A DNA stretch of 64,000 bases from contig DASSHB010000031.1 in NCBI GenBank assembly GCA_035693125.1, forward strand, positions 29,864-93,863. The letters are read 5' to 3'. Below, piece by piece: positions 23,552-43,736 of the stretch (the stretch's first letter is position 1; each line of letters starts with the position of its first letter). The notes below the pieces were generated by a model. That model saw only the letters and a program-made list of their open reading frames with translations. It was not told where the DNA came from and did not search any database. This DNA comes from Candidatus Limnocylindrales bacterium. GTDB lineage: Bacteria > Chloroflexota > Limnocylindria > Limnocylindrales > CSP1-4. The position numbers were made by a program, and so were the translations under genes.

Positions 23552-23625
23552 CCTGGGATCACGAGGCAGTCCTGGGCGGCGCGTCGTGACGGCGCGCCGC
23601 CTCCGCATGTCCGGCGAGGTTCGGC

Positions 23626-24570: not shown

Positions 24571-24618
24571 CGCTGGACCGTCCGCGGCAGCAGCCGCCCG
24601 CCCGGCTACCCTTCGGGC

Positions 24619-25647
24619 GTGGATCGTCCGTCTGCCGCTCGCTCGGCGGGCCTGCTCGTCGTGGCGTTCGTCGCGACCCTCGTGCTCCTCGCCGGCGGCC
24701 GGGCCTTGATCGGGCGAGGCGGCGCGGCCCCGCAACGATCGCCGGCTCTGTCCGGGCTCAGCCCATCGGCGATCGCCCCCGGGTCGATCCCGCCCAGCGT
24801 GGCGCCGGCCACCGTGCCTCCGGCCGTCGAACCGAACGCGTCCGACGCGCCGACGTTCGTCCTCCTCGGGGCCGGCGACATCGCCAACTGCTCCCTCGAC
24901 GGCGCGAAGCAGACGTCGGACCTCCTGCTCGGGCAGCCGGGCTGGATCTTCACCGCCGGGGACAACGCCTACGGCAACGGGAGCGCCGAGGACTACGCCT
25001 CGTGCTACGCGCCGACCTGGGGCCGCGTCCTCGGCCGGACGATCCTGCCCGCGGCCGGCAACCATGACTGGAACACGCCGAACGCGCAGGGCTATCGCGA
25101 CTACTTCGGGAGCCGGGCGGCCCCGCAGGGGACCACCTGGTACTCGACGACGATCGGGACCTGGCACATCGTCGTCCTGGATTCGGACTGCAACCGCGTC
25201 GGCGGGTGCGACCGTGACTCGGCGCAGGGCCGCTGGCTGGCCGCGGACTTGAAGGCCAGCGACGCCCGCTGCACCCTGGCGATCTGGCACCAGCCGCGGT
25301 TCAGCTCGGGGGTCCACGGGGACGATCCGCAAGTCGCTCCGTTCTGGGACCTGCTCTTCGAGCACGGGGCCGAGCTCGTGATCAACGGCCACGACCACGA
25401 CTACGAGCGGTTCGGGCCGCAGGACCCGTCCGGGAAGGCGGACTCGCCGGCCGGCATCCGGGAGCTGGTCGTGGGGACCGGCGGCGCCGACCTCCGCGGA
25501 TTCACCCACTCGACCCCGAACAGCGAGTTCCGGATGCAGGGGACGAACGGCGTCCTGCGCCTGACCCTCCACCAGGTCAACTACGACTGGGAGTTCCTGC
25601 CGACCGCGAGCGACATCGCGGAGTCCGGCAGCACGCCCTGCCACTGA
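24619..25647 (+). CDS. Secreted or membrane-anchored metallophosphoesterase
   Basis: N-terminal hydrophobic anchor, then the calcineurin-like motifs GAGDIA, TAGDNAY, AAGNHD and INGHDHDYERF. Confidence 0.85.
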   Translation: MDRPSAARSAGLLVVAFVATLVLLAGGRALIGRGGAAPQRSPALSGLSPSAIAPGSIPPSVAPATVPPAVEPNASDAPTFVLLGAGDIANCSLDGAKQTSDLLLGQPGWIFTAGDNAYGNGSAEDYASCYAPTWGRVLGRTILPAAGNHDWNTPNAQGYRDYFGSRAAPQGTTWYSTTIGTWHIVVLDSDCNRVGGCDRDSAQGRWLAADLKASDARCTLAIWHQPRFSSGVHGDDPQVAPFWDLLFEHGAELVINGHDHDYERFGPQDPSGKADSPAGIRELVVGTGGADLRGFTHSTPNSEFRMQGTNGVLRLTLHQVNYDWEFLPTASDIAESGSTPCH

Positions 25648-25710
25648 TCCGGTCGCCGCACGCCGTGACACGACCCCACGGCGGTCGGTCGGCCTCGATA
25701 CGCTGACGGC

Positions 25711-28173
25711 GTGGTGGAGCATGCCCGGGCGGTGATCATCGGCGGCGGCGTCGGCGGGACGTCGGTCGCCTACCACCTCGCCGAGCGCGGCTGGCGGGAC
25801 GTCGTCCTGGTCGACCGCGCGGAGCTGACGTCGGGATCGACATTCCACTCGGCCGGGCTGGTCGGCCAGCTCCGGAGCTCGGTGACCCTGACGACGATGA
25901 TGATGTCCGGGGCGTCGCTCTACCGCCGGCTGAAGGAGCTGACCGGGGTCGATCCGTCGTGGCACGAGGTGGGATCGCTCCGGCTCGCCTCCTCTCCGGC
26001 CCGCTTCGAGGAGCTCCAGCGCCAGGCGAGCTGGGCGAAGACCTTCGGGCTGCCGCTCGAGCTGATCAGCGCGCGCGAGGCACAGGATCGGTTCCCGCTG
26101 ATGTCGACCGAGGGCGTGCTCGGCGCGGTCTGGCTCCCGACCGACGGCTGGCTGGATCCCTCAGGACTCGCGATGGCCCTGGCGGCCGGCGCCCGCCAGA
26201 AGGGCGTCGCGATCCGGACGAACACCCGGGTCGTCGCCGTGGGCGTGGAGCGTGGCCGGGTGACGGGCGTGACGGTCGAGCTCCGGGACGGCTCGCGGGA
26301 GGAGATCCGCGCCGATGTCGTCGTCAACGCGGGCGGGATGTTCGCCCCGGAGATCGGCCGGCTGGCCGGCGTGACGATCCCGATCATCCCGATGGCCCAC
26401 CAGTACCTGTTCACCGAGCCGATGGACGGCGTCCATTCGGGCCTGCCGCAGCTCCGCGACCCGGACAACCTCGTCTACTTCCGGGAGGAGGTCGGCGGCC
26501 TGTGCATGGGCGGCTACGAGCGCGAGCCGGCGCCGTGGTCGCTGGACGGCGTGCCAGCCGATTTCAACGGGAAGCTGCTCGCCCCCGACTGGCCCCGCTT
26601 CGAGCCGATCATGGCCGGCGCGGTCCGGCGGGTCCCGTCGATCGAGGGCGCCGGGGTCTCACGGGTGATCAACGGCCCCGAGGGGTTCACGCCCGACAAC
26701 GAGTTCATCCTGGGCGAGTCGGACGTCCGCGGCTTCTTCGTCGCGGCCGGCTTCTCGGCGCACGGGATCGCGGGCGCCGGCGGCGTGGGCCGCCAGGCCG
26801 CGAGCTGGATCGTGGACGGCGAGCCCGAGCTCGACCTGTGGCACATGGACATCCGCCGCTTCGGCGGGGCGCACTGGCGCTCGCGCGAATGGACGCTCGC
26901 CCGGACGACCGAGGTGTACGCGACCTACTACGACATCCACTACCCGAACGAGGAGCGTCAGGCGGGCCGTCCGCTGCGCGTCTCGCCGACCTACGAGCGG
27001 CTTGCGGCGGCCGGAGCCGTCTTCGGCGAGAAGTCCGGCTGGGAACGGGTGAACTGGTTCGGCCCGAACGCCGACGACGCGCGGTTCGGCGGACGGCCCG
27101 CCCTCGAGGCCCTCCGGCCCCGCGGCTGGGCCGGCCAGCATTGGGATCCGGCCATCGCGGCGGAGTCGCTGGCGACCCGGCGTGATGCAGCCCTCTTCGA
27201 CGAGACGAGCTTTGCCAAGCTCGAGGTCGTCGGGCCGGGGGCCGCCGCGTTCCTCCAGACGATGGCCGCCAACGACATCGACGTCCCGGTCGGCCGGATC
27301 GTCTACTCCTCGCTCCTCAACCGGCGGGGCGGAATCGAGTGCGACCTGACGATCACCCGGATCGCGCCCGACCGGTTCTTCCTCGTCACGGGAACGGCCT
27401 TCGGGCAGCACGATCTCGCCTGGCTGCGGATCCACCTGCCCGACGACGGCTCGGTCCAGCTCAACGACCTGACGTCGGGGCGCGTCTGCTTCGGTCTGTG
27501 GGGCCCGCGAGCCCGAGAGGTCCTCGGGCCGCTCACGACGGACGACCTCTCCAGCGGCGCGTTCCCGTACCTGACCGGCCGGCCGATCACGGTCGGGCGC
27601 GTGCCGGTGCTCGCCCTGCGCGTGACGTACGTCGGCGAGCTGGGCTGGGAGCTCTATGCCCAGAGCGAGTTCGGGCCGGCGCTCTGGGACACGCTCGTCG
27701 AGGCGGGCCGGCCGCACGGCCTCACCCTGGCCGGCTACCGGGCGATCGACGCGCTCCGGCTCGAGAAGGGCTATCGGGTGTGGTCGAGCGACATCACACC
27801 GGACGAGACGCCGTTCGAGGCGGGCCTCGGGTTCGCCGTGGCCCTCGACAAGGGCGTCGACTTCATCGGGCGGGAGGCGCTCATCGCGGCGAAGGCGGCC
27901 GGACCCAGGAAGCGGCTGCGCTGCCTGGTCCTCGACGATCCCCGCTCGATCTGCCTGGGCAACGAGCCGGTCAGGATCGGCGGCGAGATCGTGGGCCGGG
28001 TCACGAGCGGCGGCTATGGCTACGCCGTGGAGCGGTCCATCGCCTATGCCTACCTGCCGCCGGACGCCCCGATCGGGACACGCGGCGAGATCGACGTCTT
28101 CGGCGAATGGATCGGGTTCGAGGCGGTCCGCGAGCCCTTGTGGGATCCAGCGAACGAGCGGATCCGGGCCTGA
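25711..28173 (+). CDS. FAD-dependent oxidoreductase fused to a GcvT aminomethyltransferase domain (dimethylglycine/sarcosine dehydrogenase-like)
   Basis: N-terminal dinucleotide-binding motif VIIGGGVGGTSVAYHLA, a DAO-type domain, and a C-terminal GcvT-like domain (..YRAIDALRLEKGYRVW.., ..TSGGYGYAVERSIAYAY..). TACGCT lies 6 nt upstream of the GTG, so the gene appears leaderless. Confidence 0.9.
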   Translation: MVEHARAVIIGGGVGGTSVAYHLAERGWRDVVLVDRAELTSGSTFHSAGLVGQLRSSVTLTTMMMSGASLYRRLKELTGVDPSWHEVGSLRLASSPARFEELQRQASWAKTFGLPLELISAREAQDRFPLMSTEGVLGAVWLPTDGWLDPSGLAMALAAGARQKGVAIRTNTRVVAVGVERGRVTGVTVELRDGSREEIRADVVVNAGGMFAPEIGRLAGVTIPIIPMAHQYLFTEPMDGVHSGLPQLRDPDNLVYFREEVGGLCMGGYEREPAPWSLDGVPADFNGKLLAPDWPRFEPIMAGAVRRVPSIEGAGVSRVINGPEGFTPDNEFILGESDVRGFFVAAGFSAHGIAGAGGVGRQAASWIVDGEPELDLWHMDIRRFGGAHWRSREWTLARTTEVYATYYDIHYPNEERQAGRPLRVSPTYERLAAAGAVFGEKSGWERVNWFGPNADDARFGGRPALEALRPRGWAGQHWDPAIAAESLATRRDAALFDETSFAKLEVVGPGAAAFLQTMAANDIDVPVGRIVYSSLLNRRGGIECDLTITRIAPDRFFLVTGTAFGQHDLAWLRIHLPDDGSVQLNDLTSGRVCFGLWGPRAREVLGPLTTDDLSSGAFPYLTGRPITVGRVPVLALRVTYVGELGWELYAQSEFGPALWDTLVEAGRPHGLTLAGYRAIDALRLEKGYRVWSSDITPDETPFEAGLGFAVALDKGVDFIGREALIAAKAAGPRKRLRCLVLDDPRSICLGNEPVRIGGEIVGRVTSGGYGYAVERSIAYAYLPPDAPIGTRGEIDVFGEWIGFEAVREPLWDPANERIRA

Positions 28174-29024
28174 TGGAGGACGTCCGCGCCGAGGGTGCCG
28201 CCTGGTCGGCGGGTCGCCGGCGGGCCGATCCGTCCGAGCTCGCCGACTGGCTGGCGTTCTGTCATGAGACCTGCGACGAGGCCGATCGGATCGCCCTGGA
28301 GGCGTTCCGGACCGAGCTGCTCGTGGAGCGCAAGTCCGACGGCTCGTTCGTCACGGCGGCCGATCGTGCGGTCGAACGCGTGATCCGCGACCGGATCGAG
28401 GCCCGCTATCCGGGGCACGGGCTGATCGGGGAGGAGTACGGCGAGTCGGAGGGCGCCGCCCGCGAGCGCTGGTACATCGACCCGATCGACGGCACCCACA
28501 ATTTCCTGCGGGGCCTGCCGGTGTTCGGGACGTTGCTCGCCGTGGAGCGCGACGGCGAGATCCAGGTGGGGATGATGAGCGCGCCGGCGCTCGGCCAGCG
28601 CTGGTACGCCTGGCGCGGCGGCGGGGCGTGGGTCGTGGGCGGACCCGCGAACCCGGCAACGCCGCGCCGGCTGCGCGTCTCGACGGTCGGGGAGCTGGAT
28701 CGGGCGCAGGTCCTCTTCCGCTCGATCCGCGACATGGAGGCCTCCCGGGTGGCGCCGGGCTTCGATCGCCTGATCCACCAGGCCTGGCGCGAGCGGGGGT
28801 TCGGCGACTTCTGGGGCTACACGCTGATCGCGGACGGCGTCGCCGAGGCGGTCCTCGAGCAGGACCTCCACCCATGGGACCTCGCGGCGCCGTGGATCAT
28901 CGTGGAGGAGGCGGGCGGGCGGATCACCGACTTCGACGGGCGGCGCAGCCTGGAGCGAGGGGAGGGGTTCGCGTCGAACGGTCTCCTCCACGACACGGTC
29001 GCGGCGATCCTGCGGGACGGTTGA
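28173..29024 (+). CDS. Inositol-monophosphatase family protein (HisN / histidinol-phosphatase-like)
   Basis: The ATG overlaps the upstream stop (TGATG). Motifs FVTAADRAVE, GEEYG, WYIDPIDGTHNF and HPWDLAAPWIIVEEAGG. Confidence 0.85.
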   Translation: MEDVRAEGAAWSAGRRRADPSELADWLAFCHETCDEADRIALEAFRTELLVERKSDGSFVTAADRAVERVIRDRIEARYPGHGLIGEEYGESEGAARERWYIDPIDGTHNFLRGLPVFGTLLAVERDGEIQVGMMSAPALGQRWYAWRGGGAWVVGGPANPATPRRLRVSTVGELDRAQVLFRSIRDMEASRVAPGFDRLIHQAWRERGFGDFWGYTLIADGVAEAVLEQDLHPWDLAAPWIIVEEAGGRITDFDGRRSLERGEGFASNGLLHDTVAAILRDG

Positions 29025-29147: not shown

Positions 29148-29184
29148 TTGACATGACGACAGACGTCTGACATCTTACGTCTTG
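29148..29184 (+). promoter_or_regulatory. Candidate promoter plus operator of the RLP cluster regulator (leaderless geometry)
   Basis: TTGACA (29148-29153), a 17-nt spacer containing the palindrome CAGACGTCTG, CATCTT, then 7 nt to the GTG at 29184. It contains AGACGTCT (29161-29168) and ATCTTACGTCTTG (29172-29184). Confidence 0.45.
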
Positions 29185-29939
29185 TGGTCACGAGCTCGCG
29201 CGTTCCGAAGGTCCGCACGCCGCGCTTCGTGGAGGTCCGCGGCGAGGTCCTGACCGACCTGACGTCGAGCTATCAGCCGGGAGACCGCTTGCCATCCGAG
29301 CCCGAGCTGGCCTCGGCCTACGGCGTGAGCCGGCCCACCATCCGGGACGTGCTGCGGAGCCTCGAGGGGGACGGCCTGGTCCGGCGCGTCCACGGCGTCG
29401 GGACGTTCGTGACGCAGATCCGGCCGCCGGTGTCCAGCCGGTTCGACCTGGATCTGGGCGTCACCGAGGCGGTCGCCGCCGCCCATCAGCGGCTGGGCGT
29501 CCAGCTCCTCCGCGCCTCCGTGGAGCCCGCGCCGCCCTCGATCGCCGAGCGCCTCGAGCTGGCCGGGTCCGCCGCCGTCCTCTGGGTGGAGCGGGTCATC
29601 CGGGTCAACGACATCCCGGCGGCGCACGCGATCGACGCGATCCCGACCGCGGTGGCCGGATCGGCGAGCTATGACGGCGGCTCGGTCTACCGCTTCCTCG
29701 AGGAATCGTGCGGCCTGGTGCTCGTCGGCGGCCAGGCCGACGTCACCGCGGTGAGCGCGGACCGCTCGCTGGCCCGGCTCCTCGGGACGGCGCCCGGCGC
29801 CCCGCTCCTCCGGATCGATCAGGTCGAGCGCTCGACGACGGATCGACCGGTCCTGTACTCCGCCGAGCACTACGTGCCGACCGTCCTGAACCTCAGCGTT
29901 CGCCGCGTCCGGCACGCCCGGCCCGGCGACGAGCGCTGA
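29184..29939 (+). CDS. GntR-family transcriptional regulator, HutC subfamily (UTRA effector domain)
   Basis: wHTH motif LPSEPELASAYGVSRPTIRDVLRSLEGDGLVRRVHGVGTFV followed by a UTRA-like C-terminal domain. Confidence 0.85.
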   Translation: MVTSSRVPKVRTPRFVEVRGEVLTDLTSSYQPGDRLPSEPELASAYGVSRPTIRDVLRSLEGDGLVRRVHGVGTFVTQIRPPVSSRFDLDLGVTEAVAAAHQRLGVQLLRASVEPAPPSIAERLELAGSAAVLWVERVIRVNDIPAAHAIDAIPTAVAGSASYDGGSVYRFLEESCGLVLVGGQADVTAVSADRSLARLLGTAPGAPLLRIDQVERSTTDRPVLYSAEHYVPTVLNLSVRRVRHARPGDER

Positions 29940-30056
29940 CCCAGCGGTCTCGATGGAGAAGGGAGGCCGGATGCGGGATTCCTAGACCCAACACGGAGGG
30001 TGGGGCGCGCGCCACGGGCCGCGCCGTCAGCGTCGGAAGGGGGAGGAGAGGTCCAC

Positions 30057-31559
30057 ATGTCCCTGTCCCGCGCGTCCGAAGCGGAGCACGATGACGACCG
30101 CGAGCTGCGGTCGTTCGGCTACGAACCGCAGCTGAACCGGTCGATGGGCCTGTTCAGCTCCCTGTCGATCTCGATCTCGTGCATGTGCATCACGGCCGGG
30201 ATCTTCACCGTCTACGCCTACTCGCTCGGCACGGTCGGGCCCGCGTTCATCTGGACGTGGCCGATCGTCGCCCTCGGCCAGATCATCGTCGCCTTGGTCC
30301 TCGCCGATCTGGCGGGACGGATGCCGTTGAGCGGCTATGCCTTCCAGTGGACGAGCCGGCTCGTGAACTCGCATTACGGCTGGTTCACCGGCTGGGCCGG
30401 GCTCATGGCGTTCACCCCCGGCTTCACCGGGTTGAACCTCGGCCTCTCACCGATCCTGCTCAACCGGCTCGGGATCGGGATCGACGCGACCTCGATCATG
30501 GTCACGACGATCTTGCTGACGCTCAGCCAGCTGTTGATCAACCTGGCCGGGGTCAGGATCGCGTCCCGCATCAACAACATCGCCGCGTACACGGCCGAGC
30601 TGGGCCTGTCGGTCGTCCTGACGGTCATCCTGCTCGTCGTCGGCTTCGTGACGAACCCCGTCCAGAGCGTCTCGTTCCTGACGACGTCGAGCGTGACCGA
30701 CGGCGGGTTCCTGACCGCGTTCCTCCTATCCGGCCTGCTCGGGATCTGGGTCCTCACCGGGTTCGAGGGTGCCGCGGACCTCGCCGAGGAGACGCAGGGC
30801 GCCCGACGCAACGTGCCCAAGGCGGTCGTCACCTCGCTGATCCTCGCCGTCGTGATCGGCTTCTTCATGCTGATCGCGCTGACGATCAACATCCGGAACC
30901 TCGGCGAGACGACGGGTGCCGCCGTCCCGATCGCCAATGTCCTGGAGGGCGCCCTCGGATCGACCGGCGCGATCATCTTCGAGGCGGTCGCGATGGTCGC
31001 CCTGTATGCCGGCGGCCTCGCCAACATGGCCGCGTCGTCGCGGCTCATCTTCTCGCTGTCGCGGGATCGGATGCTGCCGCGTTCGCAGGCGCTGGCCTCG
31101 GTGTCGCGGCGGACGGGCTCGCCCTCGGGCGCCCTCCTCCTTGCGGCTGGGCTCTCGATCGCCCTCGTCGTGATCGGCTCGACGATCGCCACCCAGGCGA
31201 TGTCACTGATCGTCGGCATGGCATCGGTCGGCTACTACGCGGTGTACGCCCTGACGATCCTCGGTGCGATCCTGGCCGCGCGGCGCGGCCTCCTGAAGGC
31301 TCGGAGCTCCTTCGATCTGGGTTCGTGGGCCGTGCCGATCCGCTGGATCGCGCTGATCTGGTCGCTGCTCGTGATCGCCGTCCTGACGATCCCGACCGCG
31401 AACCAGCAGACCGCGCTGATGGCGGGTGGGTTCTTCGTGATTGCGATCGTCTGGTACGTGGCGGTGCTTCGGGGCCGTCTCGTTCGAGGCCAGGCCGGGG
31501 TCCCCGACGCCGCCGGCGAGATGCCGGTGGCAGCCATCCCCGCCGAATCGACGATCTGA
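30057..31559 (+). CDS. APC-superfamily amino acid/amine permease
   Basis: ATG at 30057 behind GGGGGAGGAGAGG, with 12 or more hydrophobic segments. It is a paralogue of 21938..23551. Confidence 0.88.
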   Translation: MSLSRASEAEHDDDRELRSFGYEPQLNRSMGLFSSLSISISCMCITAGIFTVYAYSLGTVGPAFIWTWPIVALGQIIVALVLADLAGRMPLSGYAFQWTSRLVNSHYGWFTGWAGLMAFTPGFTGLNLGLSPILLNRLGIGIDATSIMVTTILLTLSQLLINLAGVRIASRINNIAAYTAELGLSVVLTVILLVVGFVTNPVQSVSFLTTSSVTDGGFLTAFLLSGLLGIWVLTGFEGAADLAEETQGARRNVPKAVVTSLILAVVIGFFMLIALTINIRNLGETTGAAVPIANVLEGALGSTGAIIFEAVAMVALYAGGLANMAASSRLIFSLSRDRMLPRSQALASVSRRTGSPSGALLLAAGLSIALVVIGSTIATQAMSLIVGMASVGYYAVYALTILGAILAARRGLLKARSSFDLGSWAVPIRWIALIWSLLVIAVLTIPTANQQTALMAGGFFVIAIVWYVAVLRGRLVRGQAGVPDAAGEMPVAAIPAESTI

Positions 31560-31653
31560 CCCCTTCGGCGGCGCGGGCCCTTTGTGGTCCGCGCCGCTCT
31601 CACCGCACCGATCCGGGTCCGCGTCCGCGGCCCGCCCCGCTCCGAGGAGACCG

Positions 31654-32832
31654 ATGAGCCCGACCGCGATCGAGGACTACCTGCGACCCGGCATCGCCTC
31701 GGCGTCGCCGTACGACGCCCGACACCACGACTTCGCCTGGCGCCACCGCGAGCTCGACCGGCTGATGTCGAACGAATGCCCGTTGCCGCCGTCCCCGACC
31801 GTGATCGCCGCCGCGACGGCCGCCCTCCAGATCGCGAACTTCTACCCGAACTCGGGCGAGGACCTCCGGGCCGCGGTTGCCCGCTTCAATGGTGTCGACG
31901 CCGCAAGCGTGATCCTCGGCAACGGCTCGACTGAGGTGCTCGATGTCGTGACCCGCGCGTTCGTCGGCCCGGGCGACGAGGTCGTGATCTCCGTCCCGAC
32001 GTACGCCTTCTTCGAGTCCCAGACACGGCTCTACGGCGGAGAGCCGCTGCTGATCCCGATGACGGACGACTTCCGGTTCGACGTGCCCGCGATCCTCGAC
32101 GCCGTCACCGGGCGGACGAAGGCGATCTTCCTGTGCAGCCCGAACAACCCGACGGGCAACAGCTGGACCGCGCAAGAGCTCGAGGCGGTCCTCGGGGCCG
32201 GCGTCCCGACGGTCGTCGATCAGGCCTACCTGGAGTGCGGCTGGGCGCCGTCGTTCGCCCCGCTCGTGGCGCGCCACCCGAACCTGATCGTGACCCGGAC
32301 GATGTCGAAGGCGTTCGGACTGGCGGCCCTCCGGCTCGGTTACGGGATCGCCGCGCCCACCCTCGTCGACGCCTTCCTCCGGCTGCGGATCCCGTTCAGC
32401 CTGAGCCTCGTGGCGCTCCGGGCCGGGCTCGCGGCGATGGACCACCCCGAAGAGCTCGAGGAGCGCCGCGCCTTCATCTCCACCGAGCGCGATCGGGTGT
32501 TCGCCGCCCTGGATCAGATGCCGGGGGTGCGACCGTTCCCGTCCGCGGGCAACTTCATCCTGATCGACGTCTCGGCGACCGGCCGGACGAGCGGCGAGAT
32601 CGTCGAGTTCGCCCGGCGCGAGAACATGCTCCTGCGGGCGATGACGGCACACCGCCTGAAGGACGCGTTCGTCCGGGTCACGATCGGCACCGTCGACCAG
32701 AACGATCGGTTCGTCGACGTCTTCACCCGGGCGATCGCGGGCGGCCCCCAGGTGCCTGCCCCGGCCGACACGGGCGGAGCGATGACCCGCCTCGTGGCTC
32801 GCGACCGTGCGGACGCACCGCTCGGCGCATGA
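31654..32832 (+). CDS. Class I/II (HisC-family) pyridoxal-phosphate aminotransferase
   Basis: ATG at 31654 behind GAGGAGA. Motifs NECPLPPSP, YPNSGEDLR, CSPNNPTG, and the PLP-lysine motif TRTMSKAFGLAALRLGY. It is histidinol-phosphate-aminotransferase-like. Confidence 0.85.
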   Translation: MSPTAIEDYLRPGIASASPYDARHHDFAWRHRELDRLMSNECPLPPSPTVIAAATAALQIANFYPNSGEDLRAAVARFNGVDAASVILGNGSTEVLDVVTRAFVGPGDEVVISVPTYAFFESQTRLYGGEPLLIPMTDDFRFDVPAILDAVTGRTKAIFLCSPNNPTGNSWTAQELEAVLGAGVPTVVDQAYLECGWAPSFAPLVARHPNLIVTRTMSKAFGLAALRLGYGIAAPTLVDAFLRLRIPFSLSLVALRAGLAAMDHPEELEERRAFISTERDRVFAALDQMPGVRPFPSAGNFILIDVSATGRTSGEIVEFARRENMLLRAMTAHRLKDAFVRVTIGTVDQNDRFVDVFTRAIAGGPQVPAPADTGGAMTRLVARDRADAPLGA

Positions 32833-34385
32833 CCGTTCTCGCCTGGGACATCGGGACGAGCGGTGTCAAGGCCGTGGTCGTCGATCGGTCGGGCCGCATC
32901 CTGGCCGCCGCCCGGCGGAGCTACGGCCTCGTCACGCGCGCGGACGGTTGGGTGGAGCAGGATCTCGACGCGATCGAGGCGGCGATCGGCGAGGCGACCC
33001 GCGAGCTGCTGACGGACCCGCTCTGCCGGGCTGGCGACGTCGAGGCGATCGGGCTGACCGCGCAGATGTTCGATCTCGCTGCGGTCGACGCCGACGGCCG
33101 CCAGACGATCCCGATGCTCAGCTGGCTCGACCAGCGGGCGGTCGGGGAAGCCGAGGCACTGGCCGCGGTCGTCGATCGCCGGCGACAGGCGCAGCTCTTC
33201 GGCTCGATCGTCACCGCGAAGGACGTGATCCCGAAGATCGCCTGGCTCCGCGACCAGCGGCCGGACGCCTGGCGACGGACGCGCTGGCTGCTCGACTGCA
33301 AGGAGGCCATCGTCCTCCGCCTCACCGGGCGGGCGGTGATCGATCCCGCCGGGGCGCTCGCGTTCCGCCTGGCCGATCCGCTCTCGGCATCGTGGTCCGC
33401 CGCTGCCTGCGCGGCCGCCGGGGTACCCCTCGAGCGCCTTCCGGCGATCGAGCCGGCGAGCACGGTCGCCGGAACCCTCCTGCCCGAGGTCGCGGCCCGG
33501 CTGGGCCTGGGTGCCGCGGTCCCCGTGGTGGTCGGGGCCGGGGATGTCCCCGCCAGCCAGCTCGGCGCAGGCGCGACGGATCCCGGCGACGCCCACGTCA
33601 GCCTGGGAACCGCGGTCTATTTCGGGATCACGGTCGACCGGCCCCTCGCCGACCCGGCGGGCCAGCTGGGCGTGATCGGCCACGCCGACCCGCGCCTGTT
33701 CATCCTGTGGCTGGAGGTGGCGACCGGCGGTGGCGCCCTGTCGTGGCTGCTCCGGGCGCTCGGCGACGGCGCGGAGCCCGACGCGGCCGCCCTGGCCGGG
33801 CTGGACCGGGAGGTGGCCGGGGTCGCCGCCGAGATGGACGATCTCGTCTTCGCCCCGTGGCTCAGTGGCGAACGCGTTCCGGTCTTCGACGACCGGATCC
33901 GGGGCGCCTTCGTCGGACTGGGGCTCCGTCATGGGCGCGGCCACCTCCTCCGAGCGCTGATGGAGGGCGTCGCCTACCAGATGCGCTGGGCCCTCGACTA
34001 CGGCGAGCGCTTCGGCCCGGCGGTCGGCGAGGTGCGCGGCGTCGGCGGTGGGTTCATCGGAACGAGCTGGACCCAGATCATCGCCGATGTGCTCGACCGG
34101 CCGATCCTGTCGATCCGCCATCCGCAGGACGCAGCCGCTGTCGGGGCGGCCGCCTGCGCCCTCGTCGCCATCGGGGCCCAGTCCGACCTGCGCTTCGTGC
34201 GCGAGATCGCCGAGGTCGAACGGACGCACCGGCCGGATCCTGCGAATCGCGCGCGTCTCGATGCGGGATACGCCCGCTTCCGGCAGCTGTACGAGGCCCT
34301 CGCCCCGCTGTTCTCGGGCGAGCCCGCCCGGGACACGCCGGCCGTGGCTGTTCCGCCGGCGCTCGAATCGGCGGCGGCGCCGTGA
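32829..34385 (+). CDS. FGGY-family carbohydrate kinase (xylulokinase-like)
   Basis: MTVLAWDIGTSGVKAVVVD, GAGDVPASQLGAGA and VGGGFIGTSWTQIIADVLDRPI. It has an ATGA overlap with the aminotransferase stop. Confidence 0.88.
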   Translation: MTVLAWDIGTSGVKAVVVDRSGRILAAARRSYGLVTRADGWVEQDLDAIEAAIGEATRELLTDPLCRAGDVEAIGLTAQMFDLAAVDADGRQTIPMLSWLDQRAVGEAEALAAVVDRRRQAQLFGSIVTAKDVIPKIAWLRDQRPDAWRRTRWLLDCKEAIVLRLTGRAVIDPAGALAFRLADPLSASWSAAACAAAGVPLERLPAIEPASTVAGTLLPEVAARLGLGAAVPVVVGAGDVPASQLGAGATDPGDAHVSLGTAVYFGITVDRPLADPAGQLGVIGHADPRLFILWLEVATGGGALSWLLRALGDGAEPDAAALAGLDREVAGVAAEMDDLVFAPWLSGERVPVFDDRIRGAFVGLGLRHGRGHLLRALMEGVAYQMRWALDYGERFGPAVGEVRGVGGGFIGTSWTQIIADVLDRPILSIRHPQDAAAVGAAACALVAIGAQSDLRFVREIAEVERTHRPDPANRARLDAGYARFRQLYEALAPLFSGEPARDTPAVAVPPALESAAAP

Positions 34386-35641
34386 CCGGGGCGTCCGCCG
34401 TCAGCCAGACGCTCCATGCGTCGCCACCGGGCGCGGAGCCGCGCGAGGACGTCGTGGTGACCTACCTGGCGGGCCTTCCGAGCGAGGAGTCCGCCGCGCG
34501 CACCGCGGCCGACGCGTTCGCGCTCGGGCAGAGCCTCGGAACGTGGAAGCCCGTGCCGGGCATCACCGACGCCATGCGCCGCGACCACGGCGCACGCGTC
34601 GTGGAGCTCCGCAGGACGGATCGCGACGAGGTGGTCGGCGGCGTCCGGACCGACGGGCGGTGGGTGCTGTCGGTCGCGTTCCCGGTGATCAATCTCGGGT
34701 CGTCCCTGGCGATGCTCCTGACGACGGCGATCGGGAACGACCCCTCCACGTCGATCGCGATGCGCGTCGTCGGAATCGACGTCCCCGCGCGGTACGTCGA
34801 GCTGTTCCCCGGCCCGCGCTTCGGCGTCGAGGGCTGGCGGCGGGTGACCGGCGTCGCGGCCCGGCCGCTGCTGCTGAACATGATCAAGCCGTGCACCGGG
34901 TTCCCGCCCGAGGTGGGCGCCGGGTTCGCGGCCGAGAGCGCTCGGGGCGAGGTGGACCTGATCAAGGACGACGAGCTCCTGGCCGACCCGTCGTTCTCGC
35001 GGGTCGCCGACCGGACGAGGGCGTACGTGGCCGCGATCGATGCGGTCGCCGCCGAGACCGGCCGCGCAACTCGCTACGTCGCGCACGTCACGACGACGCC
35101 AGCGCGTCTCGCCCCCACGGCGCGGGCCGCGGTCGATGCCGGAGCCGGTGCCGTGATGGTCACGCCGCTCACGCTCGGGCTCGATGCGCTCGCCGAGCTC
35201 GCGGCGACGGCCGGCGTGCCGATCCTCGCCCATGTCGCGGGGATCGAGATGTGGACCGGCGCCGCCGAGGGCGGGATCGGCCACGGGGCGCTCGCGCGCC
35301 TCCTCCGACTCGCCGGCGCGGACGCCGTCCTCACGAGCACGCCCCATGCGCCGCGGCCACTCTCGGATGCCGCCTACGCGGCGGTCGCCGCCGGGTTGCG
35401 CGACGAGGTCGCCGGGGGCCGCGTGCGCGCCGCGCTGCCGATGCCCGGCGGCGGGATCACGGCCGATCACGTCGCGCCGATCGTCGCAGCGCTCGGGACG
35501 GACGTGATCATCGCCGTCGGAGGGGCGATCCAGGGCCATCCCGACGGAGCGGCGGCGGGCGGCCGCGCCGTCCGTGCCGCGATCGACGCGGCCGTCGCGC
35601 GCCGGCCGGCGCTCGCGGGGACCGGGGAGGACCGAGCGTGA
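34382..35641 (+). CDS. RuBisCO large-subunit-like protein (form IV RLP)
   Basis: GTGA overlap with the kinase stop. Motifs LLLNMIKPCTG, VDLIKDDELL, PILAHVAG, LLRLAGADAV, LPMPGGGI and VGGAIQGHPDG align by eye with the RuBisCO IKPK, KDDE, HRAMH, SGGIH and GGGTLGHPWG regions. There is no small-subunit or PRK gene in the window. Confidence 0.85.
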   Translation: MTGASAVSQTLHASPPGAEPREDVVVTYLAGLPSEESAARTAADAFALGQSLGTWKPVPGITDAMRRDHGARVVELRRTDRDEVVGGVRTDGRWVLSVAFPVINLGSSLAMLLTTAIGNDPSTSIAMRVVGIDVPARYVELFPGPRFGVEGWRRVTGVAARPLLLNMIKPCTGFPPEVGAGFAAESARGEVDLIKDDELLADPSFSRVADRTRAYVAAIDAVAAETGRATRYVAHVTTTPARLAPTARAAVDAGAGAVMVTPLTLGLDALAELAATAGVPILAHVAGIEMWTGAAEGGIGHGALARLLRLAGADAVLTSTPHAPRPLSDAAYAAVAAGLRDEVAGGRVRAALPMPGGGITADHVAPIVAALGTDVIIAVGGAIQGHPDGAAAGGRAVRAAIDAAVARRPALAGTGEDRA

Positions 35642-36426
35642 CGCCGCCGCTCATCGGCACGAGCTGGAAGATGAACCTGACGCCGAGCGAGGCGGCCCGC
35701 TGGTTCGCGGTCGCGCGGCCGCTCCTCGAGCCGCTCGCCGCGACCCGCGACCTGTTCGTCCTGCCGCCGTTCCCGGCGATCTTCGTCGCACGTGATGCGC
35801 TGGCCGGCAGCGCGATCGGGTGGGGCGGGCAGGACCTCCACGCCGACGACGGTGGCGCCCACACCGGCGACGTGTCCGGGGCGATGCTGGCCGACCTCGG
35901 GTCCCGCTACGTCGAGATGGGCCACTCCGAGCGGCGACGCGACCACGGGGAGACCGACGCGGAGGTCGCGGGCAAGGTCCGCGCGGCGTTCCGCTGGAAC
36001 CTCACCCCGATCGTGTGCGTCGGCGAGCGGATCCAGGGTCCGCTCGCGCCGGCTTGGCGGATCGTCGAGGGCCAGCTCGCCGGCGCGTTCGACGGCCTCG
36101 TGCCCGCGGACCTCGACCGCGTCGTCGTCGCGTACGAGCCGGTCTGGGCGATCGGCGAGGGCTCGGTCGCCGCGGACCCGGACCACGTCGCCGGAATCCA
36201 CGACGCGATCGACGCCTGGCTCGCCGCGCGGGGCGCGACGGCCCGGCGCGTCCTGTACGGCGGCAGCGTCGACGAGACGACCGCGGCCGCCCTGCTCGCC
36301 GTCTCGCACGTCGCCGGGCTGTTCGTCGGCCGAGCGGCCCTCGATCCAAATCGGTTCTCCGCGATCGCCGCGACGCCGATCCCGGCCACTCGCACCGGGT
36401 CCACGGTCACCGAGAGGAGCGCCTGA
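35638..36426 (+). CDS. Triosephosphate-isomerase-family protein (TpiA2/EryH-like)
   Basis: GTGA overlap with the RLP stop and GGAGGA upstream. Motifs GTSWKMN, EMGHSERR, AYEPVWAIGEG and LYGGSV. Confidence 0.85.
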   Translation: MTPPLIGTSWKMNLTPSEAARWFAVARPLLEPLAATRDLFVLPPFPAIFVARDALAGSAIGWGGQDLHADDGGAHTGDVSGAMLADLGSRYVEMGHSERRRDHGETDAEVAGKVRAAFRWNLTPIVCVGERIQGPLAPAWRIVEGQLAGAFDGLVPADLDRVVVAYEPVWAIGEGSVAADPDHVAGIHDAIDAWLAARGATARRVLYGGSVDETTAAALLAVSHVAGLFVGRAALDPNRFSAIAATPIPATRTGSTVTERSA

Positions 36427-36927
36427 ATGCCCACCGACACCCCGATCCTGCTCGGCGCCGACGACGCCGGCCTCGGCCTGCTCGAGATCATCGCCGACGA
36501 CCTGCGGACGCTCGGCCGGGCGGTCGAGACCTACCGCCCCGATGATCCGCTCCCGGACGACGCGACGACGCCGGCCGACGAGGTCGACTACCCCGACGTC
36601 GCCGAACGCGTCGCGAACGCGATCCGGAGCGGTCGATCGGACCGCGGGATCCTGATCTGCGGAACGGGGATCGGGATGGCGATCGCCGCCAACAAGGTGC
36701 CCGGCGTCCGGGCCGCCCAGGCCCACGACGTCTATTCCGCCGAGCGCGCGCGCAAGAGCAACGATGCCCAGATCCTCACCCTGGGCGCACGGGTCATCGG
36801 CCCCGAATCCGCCAAGACGGTCGTCCATGCCTGGCTCGAGTCCGAGTTCGCCGGCGGCGCGTCGACGCGGAAGGTCGCGAAGCTCGAGCGGTTGGACGAG
36901 CGGCGCTCGGCGGCGGAGCCGCGATAG
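36427..36927 (+). CDS. rpiB: RpiB/LacA/LacB-family sugar-phosphate isomerase (EryI-like context)
   Basis: The ATG directly follows the upstream TGA. Catalytic-Cys motif ILICGTGIGMAIAANK, plus SNDAQILTLGARVIG and WLESEFAGG. Confidence 0.8.
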   Translation: MPTDTPILLGADDAGLGLLEIIADDLRTLGRAVETYRPDDPLPDDATTPADEVDYPDVAERVANAIRSGRSDRGILICGTGIGMAIAANKVPGVRAAQAHDVYSAERARKSNDAQILTLGARVIGPESAKTVVHAWLESEFAGGASTRKVAKLERLDERRSAAEPR

Positions 36928-36933
36928 GCGGCG

Positions 36934-37725
36934 CTACGCGGACTCCGCGGACCGGGGCGCGGGTGGCCGGTCCCAGAGCGGTTCGGTCGTCTGCGGCGGC
37001 CAGACCTCGGGACCGCAGATGAACGCCCGAGGGCGCGGAGCCGGCACCTGGGAGTCGAGGAGCGCGACGACGACCGGCCGGATGTCGTCGAACGTCGACC
37101 ACTCGAGATACGGCCAGCCGCGGTCGGCGCAGATCGCGGCCAGGTGGTCCTTGGCGAAGACGAGGTCGGCGTGAGCGGCCGCGTACAGGTCGCTGAACCC
37201 GTCGCCGACGAACACGGTGTAGTCGCCGGCCGCCTGGTGGACGAGGATTCGCTGGCGTTTGCAGGTGCCGCACACGCGGCAGGCCGGGTGTCCGTCCGGG
37301 AAGTCGATCGCGACGCGTCCGGGCGGGAACGTCGTCCGCGCCGCGAACACCGGGAGGTCTCCGAGACCCAGCCGCGCCAGGGACGGCCCGACGAAGAAGC
37401 CGAACCCGTCGCTGACGACTTCGACGACCGCGCCCCGGCCGCGGAGCTCGTCGACGAAGGGGCGGAACGCCGGGTCGAGGTCCTCGCCCTCGGTCATCGT
37501 CGCGATCCGCTCCGTGGCGCCGTGGAGCAGCGCCGCCTGGCGGGTGAGGAGGGTCCGCGAGCCGATCGCTCCCTCGAGATATGCGGCTTCGAGCGGCGCC
37601 CAGGCGTCGAGGTCGGCGTAGCGCCGCATGACCTCGTCGGAGAGGTCCAGGCGAGCGATCGTCCCGTCGAAGTCGACGAGCACGACCAGCCTGGCCGCCC
37701 GGTCGACCGCCCCCGGACCGGTCAC
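36934..37725 (-). CDS. HAD-IB phosphatase, MtnX-like (2-hydroxy-3-keto-5-methylthiopentenyl-1-phosphate phosphatase family)
   Basis: VLVDFDGTI, VVSDGFGFF, the Cys cluster HPACRVCGTCK, and FVGDGFSDLYAAAHADLVFAKD. This layout is shared with Bacillus MtnX as I recall it. Confidence 0.7.
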   Translation of the reverse strand: MTGPGAVDRAARLVVLVDFDGTIARLDLSDEVMRRYADLDAWAPLEAAYLEGAIGSRTLLTRQAALLHGATERIATMTEGEDLDPAFRPFVDELRGRGAVVEVVSDGFGFFVGPSLARLGLGDLPVFAARTTFPPGRVAIDFPDGHPACRVCGTCKRQRILVHQAAGDYTVFVGDGFSDLYAAAHADLVFAKDHLAAICADRGWPYLEWSTFDDIRPVVVALLDSQVPAPRPRAFICGPEVWPPQTTEPLWDRPPAPRSAESA

Positions 37726-39637: not shown

Positions 39638-39706
39638 CGCGTCCCCTCTGGTCGGCGGCGGATTGGCCTGCGCTGGCTTGACATGGAGTGTAGCGTGGTC
39701 GAGGTC

Positions 39707-39740
39707 AGACGTTATACCTCATACGTCTTCCCGTCTAGAC
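39707..39740. promoter_or_regulatory. Candidate HutC-type operator cluster in a divergent intergenic region
   Basis: AGACGT (39707-39712), a 10-nt spacer, ACGTCT within CTCATACGTCTTC (39718-39730), and the perfect palindrome GTCTAGAC (39733-39740). The last is the core of DasR-like HutC operators. Confidence 0.45.
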
Positions 39741-43654: not shown

Positions 43655-43695
43655 GGGCTGCCGGAGGGACGACGCGATCGCGCGAGATCGTTCCT

Positions 43696-43708: not shown

Positions 43709-43736
43709 TGCCCAGCTCGTCGCCCACCTGCCGGCC

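Follow-up and report, generated by a model that had tools for sequence, protein, structure and literature searches.

This analysis concerns an operon at positions 29184-36927 of a 64,000-nucleotide stretch of DNA (the window) from a Candidatus Limnocylindrales bacterium of the Chloroflexota (contig DASSHB010000031.1 of assembly GCA_035693125.1), in which a RuBisCO-like protein (RLP) is encoded between a sugar kinase and two sugar-phosphate isomerases. The RLP belongs to a distinct clade that has no characterized member and is neither MtnW nor OiaX, and RLP genes of this kind are linked across phyla to genes for a LerI-like and an RpiB-like isomerase. We consider the clade a new subfamily within the RuBisCO-like superfamily, and its reaction and pathway are probably new too. 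Judging from the sequences of its genes, we propose tentatively, with a little less than even confidence, that the operon is a GntR-controlled catabolic unit that would convert an imported amine-bearing polyol, or a closely related compound, to erythrose-4-phosphate, with the RLP acting as a tetrulose-phosphate racemase or epimerase.

The RLP operon and its conservation

Several comparisons place the RLP, a form IV protein of 419 residues (34382..35641, plus strand; Pfam RuBisCO_large, E = 3e-31, over residues 151-407), outside the characterized MtnW and OiaX families, as an earlier note on this DNA had supposed. By sequence, its closest characterized relative is the MtnW protein of Geobacillus kaustophilus (PDB 2oek, 197 bits), one of 82 solved RuBisCO and RLP sequences that match it at E below 1e-10. 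It nevertheless falls short of both MtnW models, NF007095 (229.3 bits against a cut-off of 409) and TIGR03332 (194.1 bits against 513.6), as well as of the OiaX model NF042437 (164.3 bits against 700), and it lies far under the cut-offs of the form-II and form-III RuBisCO models. Ten other clade members also miss the MtnW and OiaX cut-offs, the highest OiaX score being 222 bits; an OiaX identity for the more distant loci that combine RLP, TIM and RpiB genes was considered and rejected on these scores. The structure 3qfw, whose record gives a molecule name only and which we take to be the Rhodospirillum rubrum RLP, matches with 105 bits against 157-197 bits for the MtnW-type structures, and no close relationship to the R. 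rubrum-type 5-methylthioribulose-1-phosphate isomerase (the DeepYkr RLP) was found.

The active site is consistent with this placement. The DLIKDDE motif of the RLP aligns with VKDDE of MtnW, and its K, D and E do not vary among the 81 clade members compared; the KDDE carbamate/Mg2+ motif, the equivalents of Lys175 and His294 and the P1 phosphate-binding glycines are thus shared with MtnW. At the position of Lys98, said to have been identified as the general base of the MtnW enolase (Geobacillus numbering) by Imker and colleagues in 2007, all four solved MtnW-type proteins (2oek, 2zvi, 3fk4 and 4nas) have lysine, whereas this position, which is that of Asn123 in RuBisCO, is Asn in 80 of the 81 clade members and Ala in the remaining one (locus L012). 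Nearly all members carry the signature Asn123/Lys175/Cys177/Lys201/Asp203/Glu204/His294, Gly379-381 and Gly403-404; L012 deviates at two positions, the Ala just mentioned and an Asn in place of Gly380. Residues of carboxylation are altered in the window RLP (Lys177 to Cys, Arg295 to Val, Ser379 to Gly), and the annotated part of the window (21.9-60.8 kb) contains no phosphoribulokinase or small-subunit gene. The clade-specific Cys at the Lys177 position, also present in the MtnW-type protein 4nas, is a candidate second acid/base.

In a neighbor-joining tree the RLP clade occupies its own branch apart from the MtnW group, though this tree is approximate, has only MtnW-type outgroups and is rooted on the single sequence 4nas. 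The closest relatives of the window RLP (73-95% identity) and of the operon's aminotransferase come from soil metagenomes and from genomes labeled Candidatus Limnocylindrales or Chloroflexota, and the clade extends to cultured strains, namely Pseudonocardia charpentierae, Cnuibacter, Enterocloster lavalensis, Diplocloster and Clostridium lamae. The clade is a large one and covers several phyla: the homolog search returned 769 proteins at E below 1e-20, a cut-off that also admits other RLP and RuBisCO clades. Clade members are currently annotated as "2,3-diketo-5-methylthiopentyl-1-phosphate enolase," which we judge to be a mis-annotation; no model in the June-2026 NCBIfam release claims the clade, as scored with the window RLP and ten other members. 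Full-text searching of the literature library used found neither a publication on this clade nor a paper that connects an RLP with FGGY kinases, with the catabolism of erythritol or erythrulose, or with racemase or epimerase chemistry. The known RLP reactions are those of an enolase, a 1,3-isomerase, a decarboxylase, a transcarboxylase/hydrolase and an oxygenase, and a 2023 review lists only proton abstraction, isomerization, decarboxylation and oxygenation as RLP functions (PMC10176493).

The gene structure of the operon, the translational coupling of its genes and their conserved synteny are directly observed. Because G+C content is 67-77% across the window (in 2-kb windows), long spurious open reading frames (ORFs) are abundant in it. 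The seven co-directional frames of the operon, all on the plus strand, have no internal stops and a third-position G+C (GC3) of 0.90-0.95, and an independent gene caller that uses codon-position G+C only returned identical start and stop coordinates for 7 of 7. Together with the Pfam matches, these results confirm the coordinates, strand and family that the earlier note gave for each gene. A GntR/HutC-type regulator with a UTRA effector domain (29184..29939; Pfam GntR and UTRA), conserved in position and below every NCBIfam equivalog cut-off, is followed after 117 nt by an APC-superfamily permease for an amino acid, amine or amino alcohol (30057..31559; AA_permease_2, E = 2e-45), and after a further 94 nt by a HisC-family aminotransferase that we regard as a specialized paralog (31654..32832; Aminotran_1_2, E = 2e-53). 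Then come an XylB-like FGGY-family carbohydrate kinase (32829..34385; FGGY_N and FGGY_C), which scores 286.8 bits against a cut-off of 380 for the XylB model, the RLP, a TIM-family isomerase of the LerI/EryH type (35638..36426; TIM, E = 1e-63) and a non-canonical RpiB-family isomerase proposed to be of the DerI/EryI type (36427..36927; LacAB_rpiB, E = 8e-46). The last five genes are joined as had been described, by 4-nt overlaps at the aminotransferase/kinase (ATGA), kinase/RLP (GTGA) and RLP/TIM (GTGA) junctions and by a 0-nt junction (TGAATG) between the TIM and RpiB genes. The GTG start of the RLP at 34382 is the sole in-frame start that matches the N-terminal length of close homologs.

To place this arrangement among its relatives, 80 genomic loci encoding RLP relatives (designated by L numbers) were searched with the seven window proteins and all of their ORFs were clustered. 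Group A consists of Limnocylindrales-type Chloroflexota, including the window, and combines an IMPase-family phosphatase, the GntR regulator, in some loci the APC permease, and the HisC-like, FGGY, RLP, TIM and RpiB genes. The complete cluster recurs in L001, L002, L003 and L005, and the cluster minus the permease in L007, L008, L010, L011, L012 and L082; L006 and L083 have the same gene order up to the RLP, after which the sequence ends. L081 has a comparable arrangement in which the gene calls at the positions of GntR and FGGY are disrupted; this locus is apparently a long-read assembly with frameshifts, in which the FGGY gene is split and the ORFs at the GntR and kinase positions have no Pfam match. 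The FGGY-RLP-TIM-RpiB synteny on which the earlier note had built is therefore not unique to this genome.

Beyond group A, the RLP is found with other partners. Group B comprises 11 Actinomycetota loci with a sugar ATP-binding-cassette (ABC) importer, a DeoR regulator, a GlpD-type flavin adenine dinucleotide (FAD) dehydrogenase and the FGGY, RLP, TIM and RpiB genes: the GlpD/EryB-type dehydrogenase and the RLP are present in 11/11, FGGY in 10/11, TIM in 9/11 and RpiB in 8/11, and in four of the loci a dihydroxyacetone-kinase-family gene is present too. In L013, which is compact, every enzyme gene could be assigned. The Clostridia of group C have a complete GAT-type phosphotransferase system (PTS; Enzyme I, HPr, IIA, IIB and IIC), DeoR, a class-II aldolase-family gene, RpiB, TIM and RLP, and group D, in Clostridia and Chloroflexota, has an ABC importer, a metallo-beta-lactamase-fold protein, UPF0261, a class-II aldolase-family gene, the RLP and often TIM and RpiB. 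Finally, in group E (Bathyarchaeia, Anaerolineae and Dehalococcoidia) FGGY-RLP is accompanied by a class-III aminotransferase, a saccharopine-dehydrogenase-like gene or both, and TIM and RpiB genes are lacking. Groups A-D form one branch of the tree, and group E together with a few UPF0261-linked sequences forms its sister branch. Within the fetched flanks, a TIM-like and/or RpiB-like gene occurs in 42/56 loci of the A-D branch, both occurring in 38, and in 0/24 of the E branch; the linkage of the RLP/TIM/RpiB trio holds in Chloroflexota, Actinomycetota and Clostridia.

Each context group is equipped with a phosphorylation device of its own, whether FGGY, a complete PTS or the UPF0261 kinase, in keeping with a phosphorylated intermediate common to all of them. 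UPF0261 has recently been identified as a family of kinases (PMC12624787), and its one characterized member is the kinase MarK. UPF0261 (Tm-1-like) genes adjoin the RLP in 21 loci (L021-L022, L025-L026, L028, L031-L032, L034, L036, L040, L049, L051, L054-L055, L060, L063-L066, L072 and L078), often with metallo-beta-lactamase-fold and class-II aldolase-family genes, and UPF0261 seems to replace the FGGY kinase at these loci. We also expected a polyol-phosphate dehydrogenase in the PTS-type loci. This was not generally borne out: an unlabeled 575-residue family there proved to be PTS Enzyme I, and an FAD dehydrogenase lies nearby only in L046 and L020.

The sister branch of the RLP (L024, L042-L047, L052-L053, L056-L057, L059, L062, L067, L069-L071, L077 and L079-L080) also occurs in Hadarchaeales and Baldrarchaeota. 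Its neighbors in group E are heterogeneous (MFS, amidohydrolase, Q_salvage, radical SAM); L057 has both classes of aminotransferase and L053 has a Q_salvage-domain gene upstream. This branch probably represents another undescribed RLP function.

A proposed route to erythrose-4-phosphate

The two isomerases point to the product of the pathway. The PDB contains a TIM-family L-erythrulose-1-phosphate isomerase, LerI (11ef, 11eg and 13gn), and the window TIM-like protein has in common with 11ef, the one LerI reference sequence compared, the motifs IGTSWKMN, VE(L/M)GHSERR, IGE and GLF(V/I)GR(A/S)A, where four aligned canonical TIMs have AGNWKM, V(V/I)GHSERR, IGTG and GGLVGGAS. The first of these motifs takes the place of TIM's catalytic Asn, and the last changes loop 8, which grips the phosphate; the TIM fold and the catalytic Lys, His and Glu are kept (WKMN, GHSERR and YEPVWAIG are present). 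By overall score the protein is slightly closer to Thermus triosephosphate isomerase than to 11ef, and with 227.7 bits it misses the cut-off of 293 set for the TIM equivalog. The RLP-linked TIM-like genes of groups A-D all have the GxFxGR form of loop 8 and lack the canonical N-terminal motif. The RpiB-like protein has as its best NCBIfam match the DerI model NF051858 (163.9 bits, under the cut-off of 240) and passes the general RpiB subfamily model (162.5 bits against 135); it has GADDAG and GGAS in place of the GSDHGG and GGRH of 3he8, the single canonical RpiB used as reference, and both canonical motifs (SDH and GGRH) are missing from all RLP-linked RpiB-like proteins.

These motifs uphold the earlier suggestion that the two genes are of the Ery/Ler/Der type and not housekeeping genes. 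By its motifs the TIM-like gene is of the LerI type, and we propose that the RpiB-like enzyme is a D-erythrulose-4-phosphate/D-erythrose-4-phosphate isomerase of the DerI/EryI type. Because the TIM-like protein has LerI motifs and the RpiB-like protein is non-canonical with DerI as its best match, the predicted back end, fed by the RLP, runs from erythrulose-1-phosphate through erythrulose-4-phosphate to erythrose-4-phosphate. EryH and EryI perform these steps in Brucella (PMC11508834). LerI and DerI were reportedly found by Huang and colleagues in 2015 to perform them in Mycobacterium smegmatis. The "EryC/LerI-type TIM-barrel" enzyme, which the earlier note offered as the usual catalyst of the RLP's step, needs correction, as LerI is itself the TIM-family enzyme (PDB 11ef).

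At the other end of the operon, the HisC-like gene is an integral and conserved member of the module, since the homologs examined again adjoin an RLP module. Two of these (71% and 66% identity; three places) were examined with their context, each lying in an IMPase-(GntR)-HisC-FGGY-RLP-TIM-RpiB arrangement; an intact FGGY kinase lies between the HisC-like gene and the RLP in L082 and L083, and one of the loci also keeps the convergent HAD/GDPD/ABC genes and the downstream genes for GntR and a solute-binding protein. FGGY-RLP stands beside every HisC-like homolog examined, and a his-gene context is absent. The best 120 homologs (64-89% identity) are all automatically annotated as HisC. The window protein narrowly passes TIGR01141 (287.5 bits against 276.55), the only curated cut-off that it passes, and fails five more specific HisC models. 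It keeps the lysine that binds pyridoxal phosphate (PLP) and both C-terminal arginines, and it has SNECP and GSTE where plant HisC 8bj4, the one canonical HisC aligned, has NENP and GADE, the Asp of GADE being the residue that binds imidazole.

The permease and a phosphatase complete this front end. The APC permease is present in the window, L001, L002, L003 and L005 and absent from a subgroup with 53-60% RLP identity; APC permeases include amino-alcohol carriers, and an ethanolamine permease model is among the weak NCBIfam matches of the window protein. An IMPase-family, HisN-like phosphatase (28173..29024, plus strand; Inositol_P, E = 7e-49; NCBIfam HisN 248.6 bits against a cut-off of 275) lies upstream of GntR in 10/12 group-A loci, and so it does in L081 and L082; its start codon in the window shares 1 nt with the stop of the preceding dimethylglycine dehydrogenase-like (DMGDH-like) gene. 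The aminotransferase, permease and phosphatase, to which the earlier note gave no role, are thus integral and conserved in the module. HisC interconverts R-CH(NH2)-CH2OP and R-C(=O)-CH2OP in passing from histidinol phosphate to imidazole-acetol phosphate, and class-III aminotransferases recur beside FGGY-RLP in group E. On the basis of this chemistry, the HisN-like neighbor, the permease and the group-E aminotransferases, we propose that the substrate is an imported 2-amino-polyol and that the HisC-like enzyme interconverts a 2-amino-alkyl phosphate (or an amino-polyol) and a 2-keto compound.

Upstream of its IMPase gene, the subgroup lacking the APC permease (L006-L011 and L082) has extra FGGY kinases and short-chain dehydrogenases, one or two of each; a threonine-aldolase-family (Beta_elim_lyase) gene is added in L010, and in L082 genes for a ribose-type ABC importer and a PfkB kinase. 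It appears that, even in a single class of bacteria, different front ends feed the same RLP core.

In the pathway that we envisage, the permease would import the compound, and the FGGY kinase and the HisC-like aminotransferase, acting in either order, would turn it into a short 2-keto-1-phosphate, of which the likeliest is erythrulose-1-phosphate (that is, 3-tetrulose-4-phosphate). The RLP would bind the ketone and phosphate through its Mg2+/carbamylated-lysine center and P1 phosphate site and abstract the C3 proton, giving a 2,3-enediolate as in the first partial reaction of RuBisCO; reprotonation would then yield the stereoisomer that the next enzyme accepts, so that the RLP would be a tetrulose-phosphate racemase or epimerase in the role that EryC has in Brucella. 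The LerI-type TIM-family enzyme would shift the carbonyl to give D-erythrulose-4-phosphate, and the RpiB-family enzyme would form D-erythrose-4-phosphate, which would enter the pentose-phosphate pathway. We infer the RLP reaction, the identity of the substrate, the order of kinase and aminotransferase and the catabolic direction from the genes and their contexts. Over C1-C3, erythrulose-1-phosphate and ribulose-1,5-bisphosphate have the same structure. Removal of the C3 proton is the first step of RuBisCO catalysis, and RuBisCO makes xylulose-1,5-bisphosphate if the proton returns to C3 of the enediolate from the wrong side, which places the C3 epimerization of a 2-keto-1-phosphate within the known chemistry of the superfamily.

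A second line of support comes from the Actinomycetota. In Brucella, EryA phosphorylates erythritol, EryB oxidizes the product to L-3-tetrulose-4-phosphate, and EryC, needed between EryB and EryH, racemizes this to D-3-tetrulose-4-phosphate, the EryH substrate (PMC11508834). The actinomycete loci encode counterparts of EryA, EryB, EryH and EryI, a regulator and an importer, with the RLP in 11/11, and an AP_endonuc_2 (EryC-type) gene was detected in none of the 80 loci (about 9 kb around each RLP, by ORF clustering and by tblastn with the window's own AP_endonuc_2 protein). D-3-tetrulose-4-phosphate is, by our own derivation of the nomenclature, L-erythrulose-1-phosphate. Given that no EryC-type gene was detected, that the RLP is present in all 11 loci and that C3 chemistry is native to RuBisCO, the RLP reads most economically as a tetrulose-1-phosphate enolizer that would deliver the stereoisomer used by LerI. 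The earlier proposal that the RLP may perform EryC's enediolate step gains independent support from these 11 loci and from the absence of detectable AP_endonuc_2 genes. A PTS acting on a ketose would give the ketose-1-phosphate directly, and the tetrulose-1-phosphate model also fits the other groups, in which different phosphorylation devices and front ends meet the same RLP/LerI/DerI core.

Several points weigh against this reading. The "missing enzyme" argument comes from the actinomycete loci and not from the window, in which the RLP reaction is inferred and one AP_endonuc_2 protein is encoded 19 kb from the RLP. The group-A RLPs lie on a long branch and differ from those of groups B-D at the periphery of the pocket, with Val, Thr or Ser instead of Tyr at the Arg295 position and Thr or Arg instead of His at the His383 position; the group-A substrate may therefore differ from that of groups B-D. 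We know of no natural 2-amino-tetritol substrate, and a phosphatase with amino-alkyl phosphates as substrates would work against the kinase if the pathway were catabolic only. Moreover, the HisC-like protein passes a broad HisC model and has a HisN-like neighbor, and these could be the real histidine enzymes of the genome. On another reading the whole grouping would be incidental, with HisC, TIM and RpiB as housekeeping enzymes beside an unrelated kinase and RLP. The TIGR01141 score and the overall closeness of the TIM-like protein to Thermus triosephosphate isomerase speak for this, but we find it barely credible in view of the 4-nt stop/start overlaps, a synteny kept down to 53% RLP identity in Chloroflexota and a trio kept across phyla, a TIM-like protein with LerI-specific motifs below the TIM equivalog cut-off and an RpiB-like protein without canonical motifs.

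Other readings assign the RLP a different reaction or the pathway a different direction. The RLP could be a decarboxylase or another C-C-cleaving enzyme like OiaX, forming L-erythrulose-1-phosphate from a C5, possibly branched, beta-keto-acid phosphate; in the window the permease would then import a polyhydroxy amino acid, which the HisC-like enzyme would convert to a keto acid and the FGGY kinase would phosphorylate. We regard both the general form and this variant as rather unlikely. The OiaX route, reportedly described by Carter and colleagues in 2018, has the same back end of RLP, TIM-like and RpiB-like proteins, and OiaX is among the NCBIfam matches of the RLP; group D, with a possible lactonase, a UPF0261 kinase and a class-II aldolase/decarboxylase-family protein beside RLP, TIM and RpiB, resembles acid-sugar routes, APC permeases are mostly amino-acid carriers, FGGY kinases include gluconokinase, and a threonine-aldolase-family gene lies upstream in the 53-60% identity subgroup. 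The sampled clade members nonetheless score at most 222 of the 700 bits required for OiaX, and the operon has no DUF1537 kinase, PdxA-like oxidoisomerase or sugar-acid-forming dehydrogenase. In actinomycetes the RLP is paired with a polyol-phosphate-type dehydrogenase, which would yield a keto-phosphate and not a keto acid, and transamination of an alpha-amino acid gives an alpha- and not a beta-keto acid, so that an extra isomerization would be needed. Reversal of the pathway is in our view unlikely: erythrose-4-phosphate would pass through the RpiB-like, LerI-like and RLP enzymes to a tetrulose-1-phosphate, to be aminated by the HisC-like and dephosphorylated by the HisN-like enzyme to a free amino-tetritol (an osmolyte or lipid head group), with the kinase, on an equally unlikely elaboration, serving salvage and the permease export or re-uptake. 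The isomerase steps are all reversible, and the conserved HisC-like and HisN-like pair mirrors the last phosphate-handling steps of histidinol synthesis. The phosphatase, however, lies outside the coupled block, upstream of the regulator, and is coupled to another gene in the window, whereas the kinase lies inside the block and overlaps both of its neighbors. HutC-type GntR regulators and uptake permeases are typical of catabolic operons, the genes on either side (for GDPDs, an ABC importer and the DMGDH-like demethylase) are of a catabolic or scavenging kind, and in other phyla the trio accompanies PTS and ABC importers. That the RLP is a 2,3-diketo-5-methylthiopentyl-1-phosphate-type enolase (MtnW) of methionine salvage or of a parallel route, for example for 5-deoxy-sugars, seems to us highly improbable. 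MtnW models and structures do score best among the characterized relatives, an MtnX-like HAD-IB phosphatase is convergent next to the operon, and class-II aldolase (MtnB-family) genes adjoin the RLP in other groups. Yet both cut-offs are missed (229 against 409 bits and 194 against 513.6), the catalytic Lys98 kept in the four solved MtnW-type proteins is replaced throughout the clade (Asn in 80/81, Ala in L012), MtnK, MtnA, MtnB and MtnD were not found in the annotated part of the window, and the linked TIM-like and RpiB-like enzymes have no role in methionine salvage.

If the racemase/epimerase proposal is extended from the operon to the family, a wider hypothesis follows, which is possible though more doubtful. 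The RLPs of Chloroflexota, Actinomycetota and gut and environmental Clostridia, with their Bathyarchaeia/Anaerolineae sister branch, may be ketose-1-phosphate racemases or epimerases that replace EryC non-orthologously, wired in Limnocylindrales-type Chloroflexota to paralogs of the histidinol-phosphate enzymes in a new route from an amino-polyol to erythrose-4-phosphate. Few RLP reactions are known, and each has informed ideas on the origin of RuBisCO chemistry. Here gene context predicts a substrate and product of the RLP that bracket erythrulose-1-phosphate, and the next enzyme has a solved homolog. If true, the hypothesis would add a new reaction class to the RuBisCO superfamily, in which a side reaction of RuBisCO (enolization and C3 reprotonation) has been turned into a physiological function; it would supply an otherwise unaccounted-for step for tetritol-type loci outside Proteobacteria, reveal a new use of HisC/HisN-type chemistry for amino-polyol catabolism in abundant soil and freshwater Chloroflexota, and correct a widespread annotation error.

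Regulatory sequences and flanking genes

A candidate promoter/operator, TTGACAT-GACGACAGACGTCTGACATCTTACGTCTT (29148..29183, plus strand), lies directly 5' of the GTG start of the GntR gene, and a transcript of the RLP operon from it would be leaderless or nearly so. Five orthologous loci with non-alignable flanks all carry CGTCTGACATCTTA unchanged, and the block TTGACAT...ACGTCTGACATCTTACG 5' of the operon's GntR gene is almost invariant in the same five. The sequence ACGTCTGA occurs three times in the 64 kb, each time in intergenic DNA (3/3, P = 4.5e-4). An exact search for the 17-nt operator in the other loci matched L003 only, and the degenerate 11-mer alone is not above chance, so that the argument for an operator rests on the alignment footprint and the intergenic enrichment. 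Consensus scans for promoters and terminators returned a single terminator-like site and nothing resembling a promoter, a yield that shuffled sequence equals. Rfam scans of the entire window (gathering scores) and of 28.9-31.8 kb (E up to 1) detected no riboswitch or other known RNA. Within the operon, a Shine-Dalgarno-like GGGGGAGGAGAGG precedes the permease gene, and a G+C-rich hairpin with 12-bp arms, a 6-nt loop and no T-run (31568..31597, plus strand) stands just 3' of the permease stop, with a second, partly complementary copy at 31629-31640. Lying between the permease and aminotransferase genes, the hairpin could be an attenuator or a site of processing.

The operator-like core (A)CGTCTGA is found in four promoter regions of the window: that of the RLP operon (29148-29183), the divergent region between the ABC/GDPD/HAD unit and the second GntR gene (39677-39740), the region upstream of the third GntR gene and second FGGY kinase (43695-43712) and the divergent region between the AP_endonuc_2 and DAO-fusion genes (55499-55533). 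At the first, second and fourth of these the core is preceded by TTGACAT. The arrangement before the DAO-fusion gene at 55.5 kb is near-identical to that of the RLP operon, and the cores upstream of the other two GntR genes are related; at the 39.7-kb site there is, in addition, a sequence similar to a DasR box, GTCTAGAC. This distribution suggests one regulon that may be served by three paralogous HutC-type regulators, possibly for scavenging phospho-head-group or amino-alcohol compounds.

Among the flanking genes, the MtnX-like HAD-IB phosphatase (36934..37725, minus strand; Pfam HAD) is convergent with the operon and is the last gene of an ABC-ATPase/GDPD/HAD unit. It scores 88.7 bits against a cut-off of 292 for the MtnX model and passes the HAD-IB subfamily model, and its convergent position is kept in L001, L002, L003, L005 and L082. 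Beyond this minus-strand unit of ABC ATPase, GDPD and HAD genes lie a GntR regulator, a PotD-type binding protein and two permeases. Upstream of the operon, a co-directional cluster (21938-28173) encodes a second APC permease, a choline/ethanolamine-kinase-family protein (GntI-like, 297 bits against 357), a metallophosphoesterase and an 820-residue DAO+FAO_M+GCV_T protein of the dimethylglycine/sarcosine-dehydrogenase type, this last being the DMGDH-like gene that overlaps the HisN-like start. The cluster looks like one for the catabolism of an N-methylated amino alcohol. Further downstream, 43737-49049 is another, unassigned polyol-phosphate module, with a third GntR regulator, a second XylB-like FGGY kinase, a 485-residue glycerol-1-phosphate-dehydrogenase-like protein (Fe-ADH_2), a NagD-type HAD phosphatase and a 223-residue protein with no Pfam family. 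A minus-strand group at 50131-54634 (a polysaccharide-deacetylase-domain protein, a 769-residue DUF2264 protein and a 421-residue protein with a weak oligogalacturonate-lyase-like match) appears unrelated to the RLP.

The earlier note had also held that EryB-like and EryC-like genes at 54631-57882 split the Ery parts list between two loci, a claim that we do not sustain, as the resemblance is at the level of family only. The AP_endonuc_2 protein (54631-55497) has no curated family match. The 782-residue DAO + Pyr_redox_2 fusion (55534-57882) lacks the GlpD C-terminal domain (DAO_C) and best matches type-2 glycerol-3-phosphate oxidase; it is followed by a 153-residue ORF, a GlpK-like kinase (471 bits against 590) and a GDPD gene, and this cluster (55534-60768) looks like one for glycerol or glycerophosphodiesters and not like the missing half of an Ery pathway. 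In two Clostridia loci, homologs of the fusion adjoin the RLP or lie in its vicinity: the distance is about 6.6 kb in L020, and in L046, from Caproicibacter, the two halves are separate genes (10298-13004; DAO+Fer2_BFD and Pyr_redox_2) directly downstream of the RLP. In view of the shared operator-like motif and of these two loci, a link to the distal locus is possible, as is, from the motif, its co-regulation with the RLP operon.

Comparison with known systems

Like the MtnW/YkrW protein 2oek, the RLP has the KDDE motif, the Lys175 and His294 equivalents and the P1 glycines, and both proteins are expected to act on a phosphate next to a carbonyl. Unlike it, the RLP has Asn in place of Lys98, Cys at the Lys177 position and Gly-Gly-Gly in place of Ser379-Ala-Gly, and the operon contains no methionine-salvage genes, the nearest being the weakly MtnX-like HAD-IB gene on the opposite strand (88.7 against 292 bits). 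The aminotransferase and its neighboring phosphatase are the closest paralogs of HisC and HisN, and the R-C(=O)-CH2OP motif of the HisC reaction is that of the substrates of the RLP and LerI; in contrast to histidine biosynthesis, there is no his-operon context, SNECP and GSTE stand for NENP and GADE, and the gene is embedded in a sugar-phosphate operon.

The work of Carter and colleagues in 2018 is said to have established a route in which OiaK, a DUF1537 kinase, and OiaX, an RLP decarboxylase, are followed by L-erythrulose-1-phosphate and D-erythrulose-4-phosphate isomerases. As in that route, the RLP gene of the window is directly upstream of TIM- and RpiB-family isomerase genes, and L-erythrulose-1-phosphate is the expected hand-over metabolite. 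The kinase differs, being FGGY and not DUF1537, an aminotransferase is present, and the operon has no apiose/apionate dehydrogenase, lactonase or oxidoisomerase gene; the annotated genes of the window include neither a DUF1537 nor a PdxA-like one. The statement in the earlier note that no known RLP function has this gene context was therefore too strong: the back end is shared with the OiaX route, and it is in the front end and the RLP clade that the two differ. Taken as a whole, the earlier interpretation stands in part, namely for the placement of the RLP outside the MtnW and OiaX families, the synteny, the type of the isomerases and the support gained for an EryC-like role of the RLP, and needs correction in its context claim, its use of the LerI label and its distal Ery genes.

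In Mycobacterium smegmatis, tetritol catabolism reportedly runs through LerK, LerI, DerK and DerI and needs no racemase, as described by Huang and colleagues in 2015. The window operon resembles that system in its LerI-type isomerase, with signature motifs identical to those of 11ef, its DerI-like RpiB-family isomerase and its FGGY-type kinase, and a Pseudonocardia RLP locus has a dihydroxyacetone-kinase-family gene like DerK; it differs in having an RLP and an aminotransferase. With the Ery pathway of Brucella the operon has in common an FGGY kinase at the front, TIM- and RpiB-family isomerases at a back end leading to erythrose-4-phosphate and, as we propose, a keto-phosphate intermediate that would need stereochemical adjustment by enolization. 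Unlike that pathway it has no EryB-type dehydrogenase and no EryC (AP_endonuc_2), its RLP stands in mid-pathway and its regulator is of the GntR/HutC type; its front end is formed by an APC permease and a HisC-like aminotransferase, so that its substrate is probably an amine rather than erythritol. The actinomycete RLP loci resemble the Brucella system further, sharing with it an EryB-type dehydrogenase, a DeoR regulator and a sugar ABC importer (PMC11508834).

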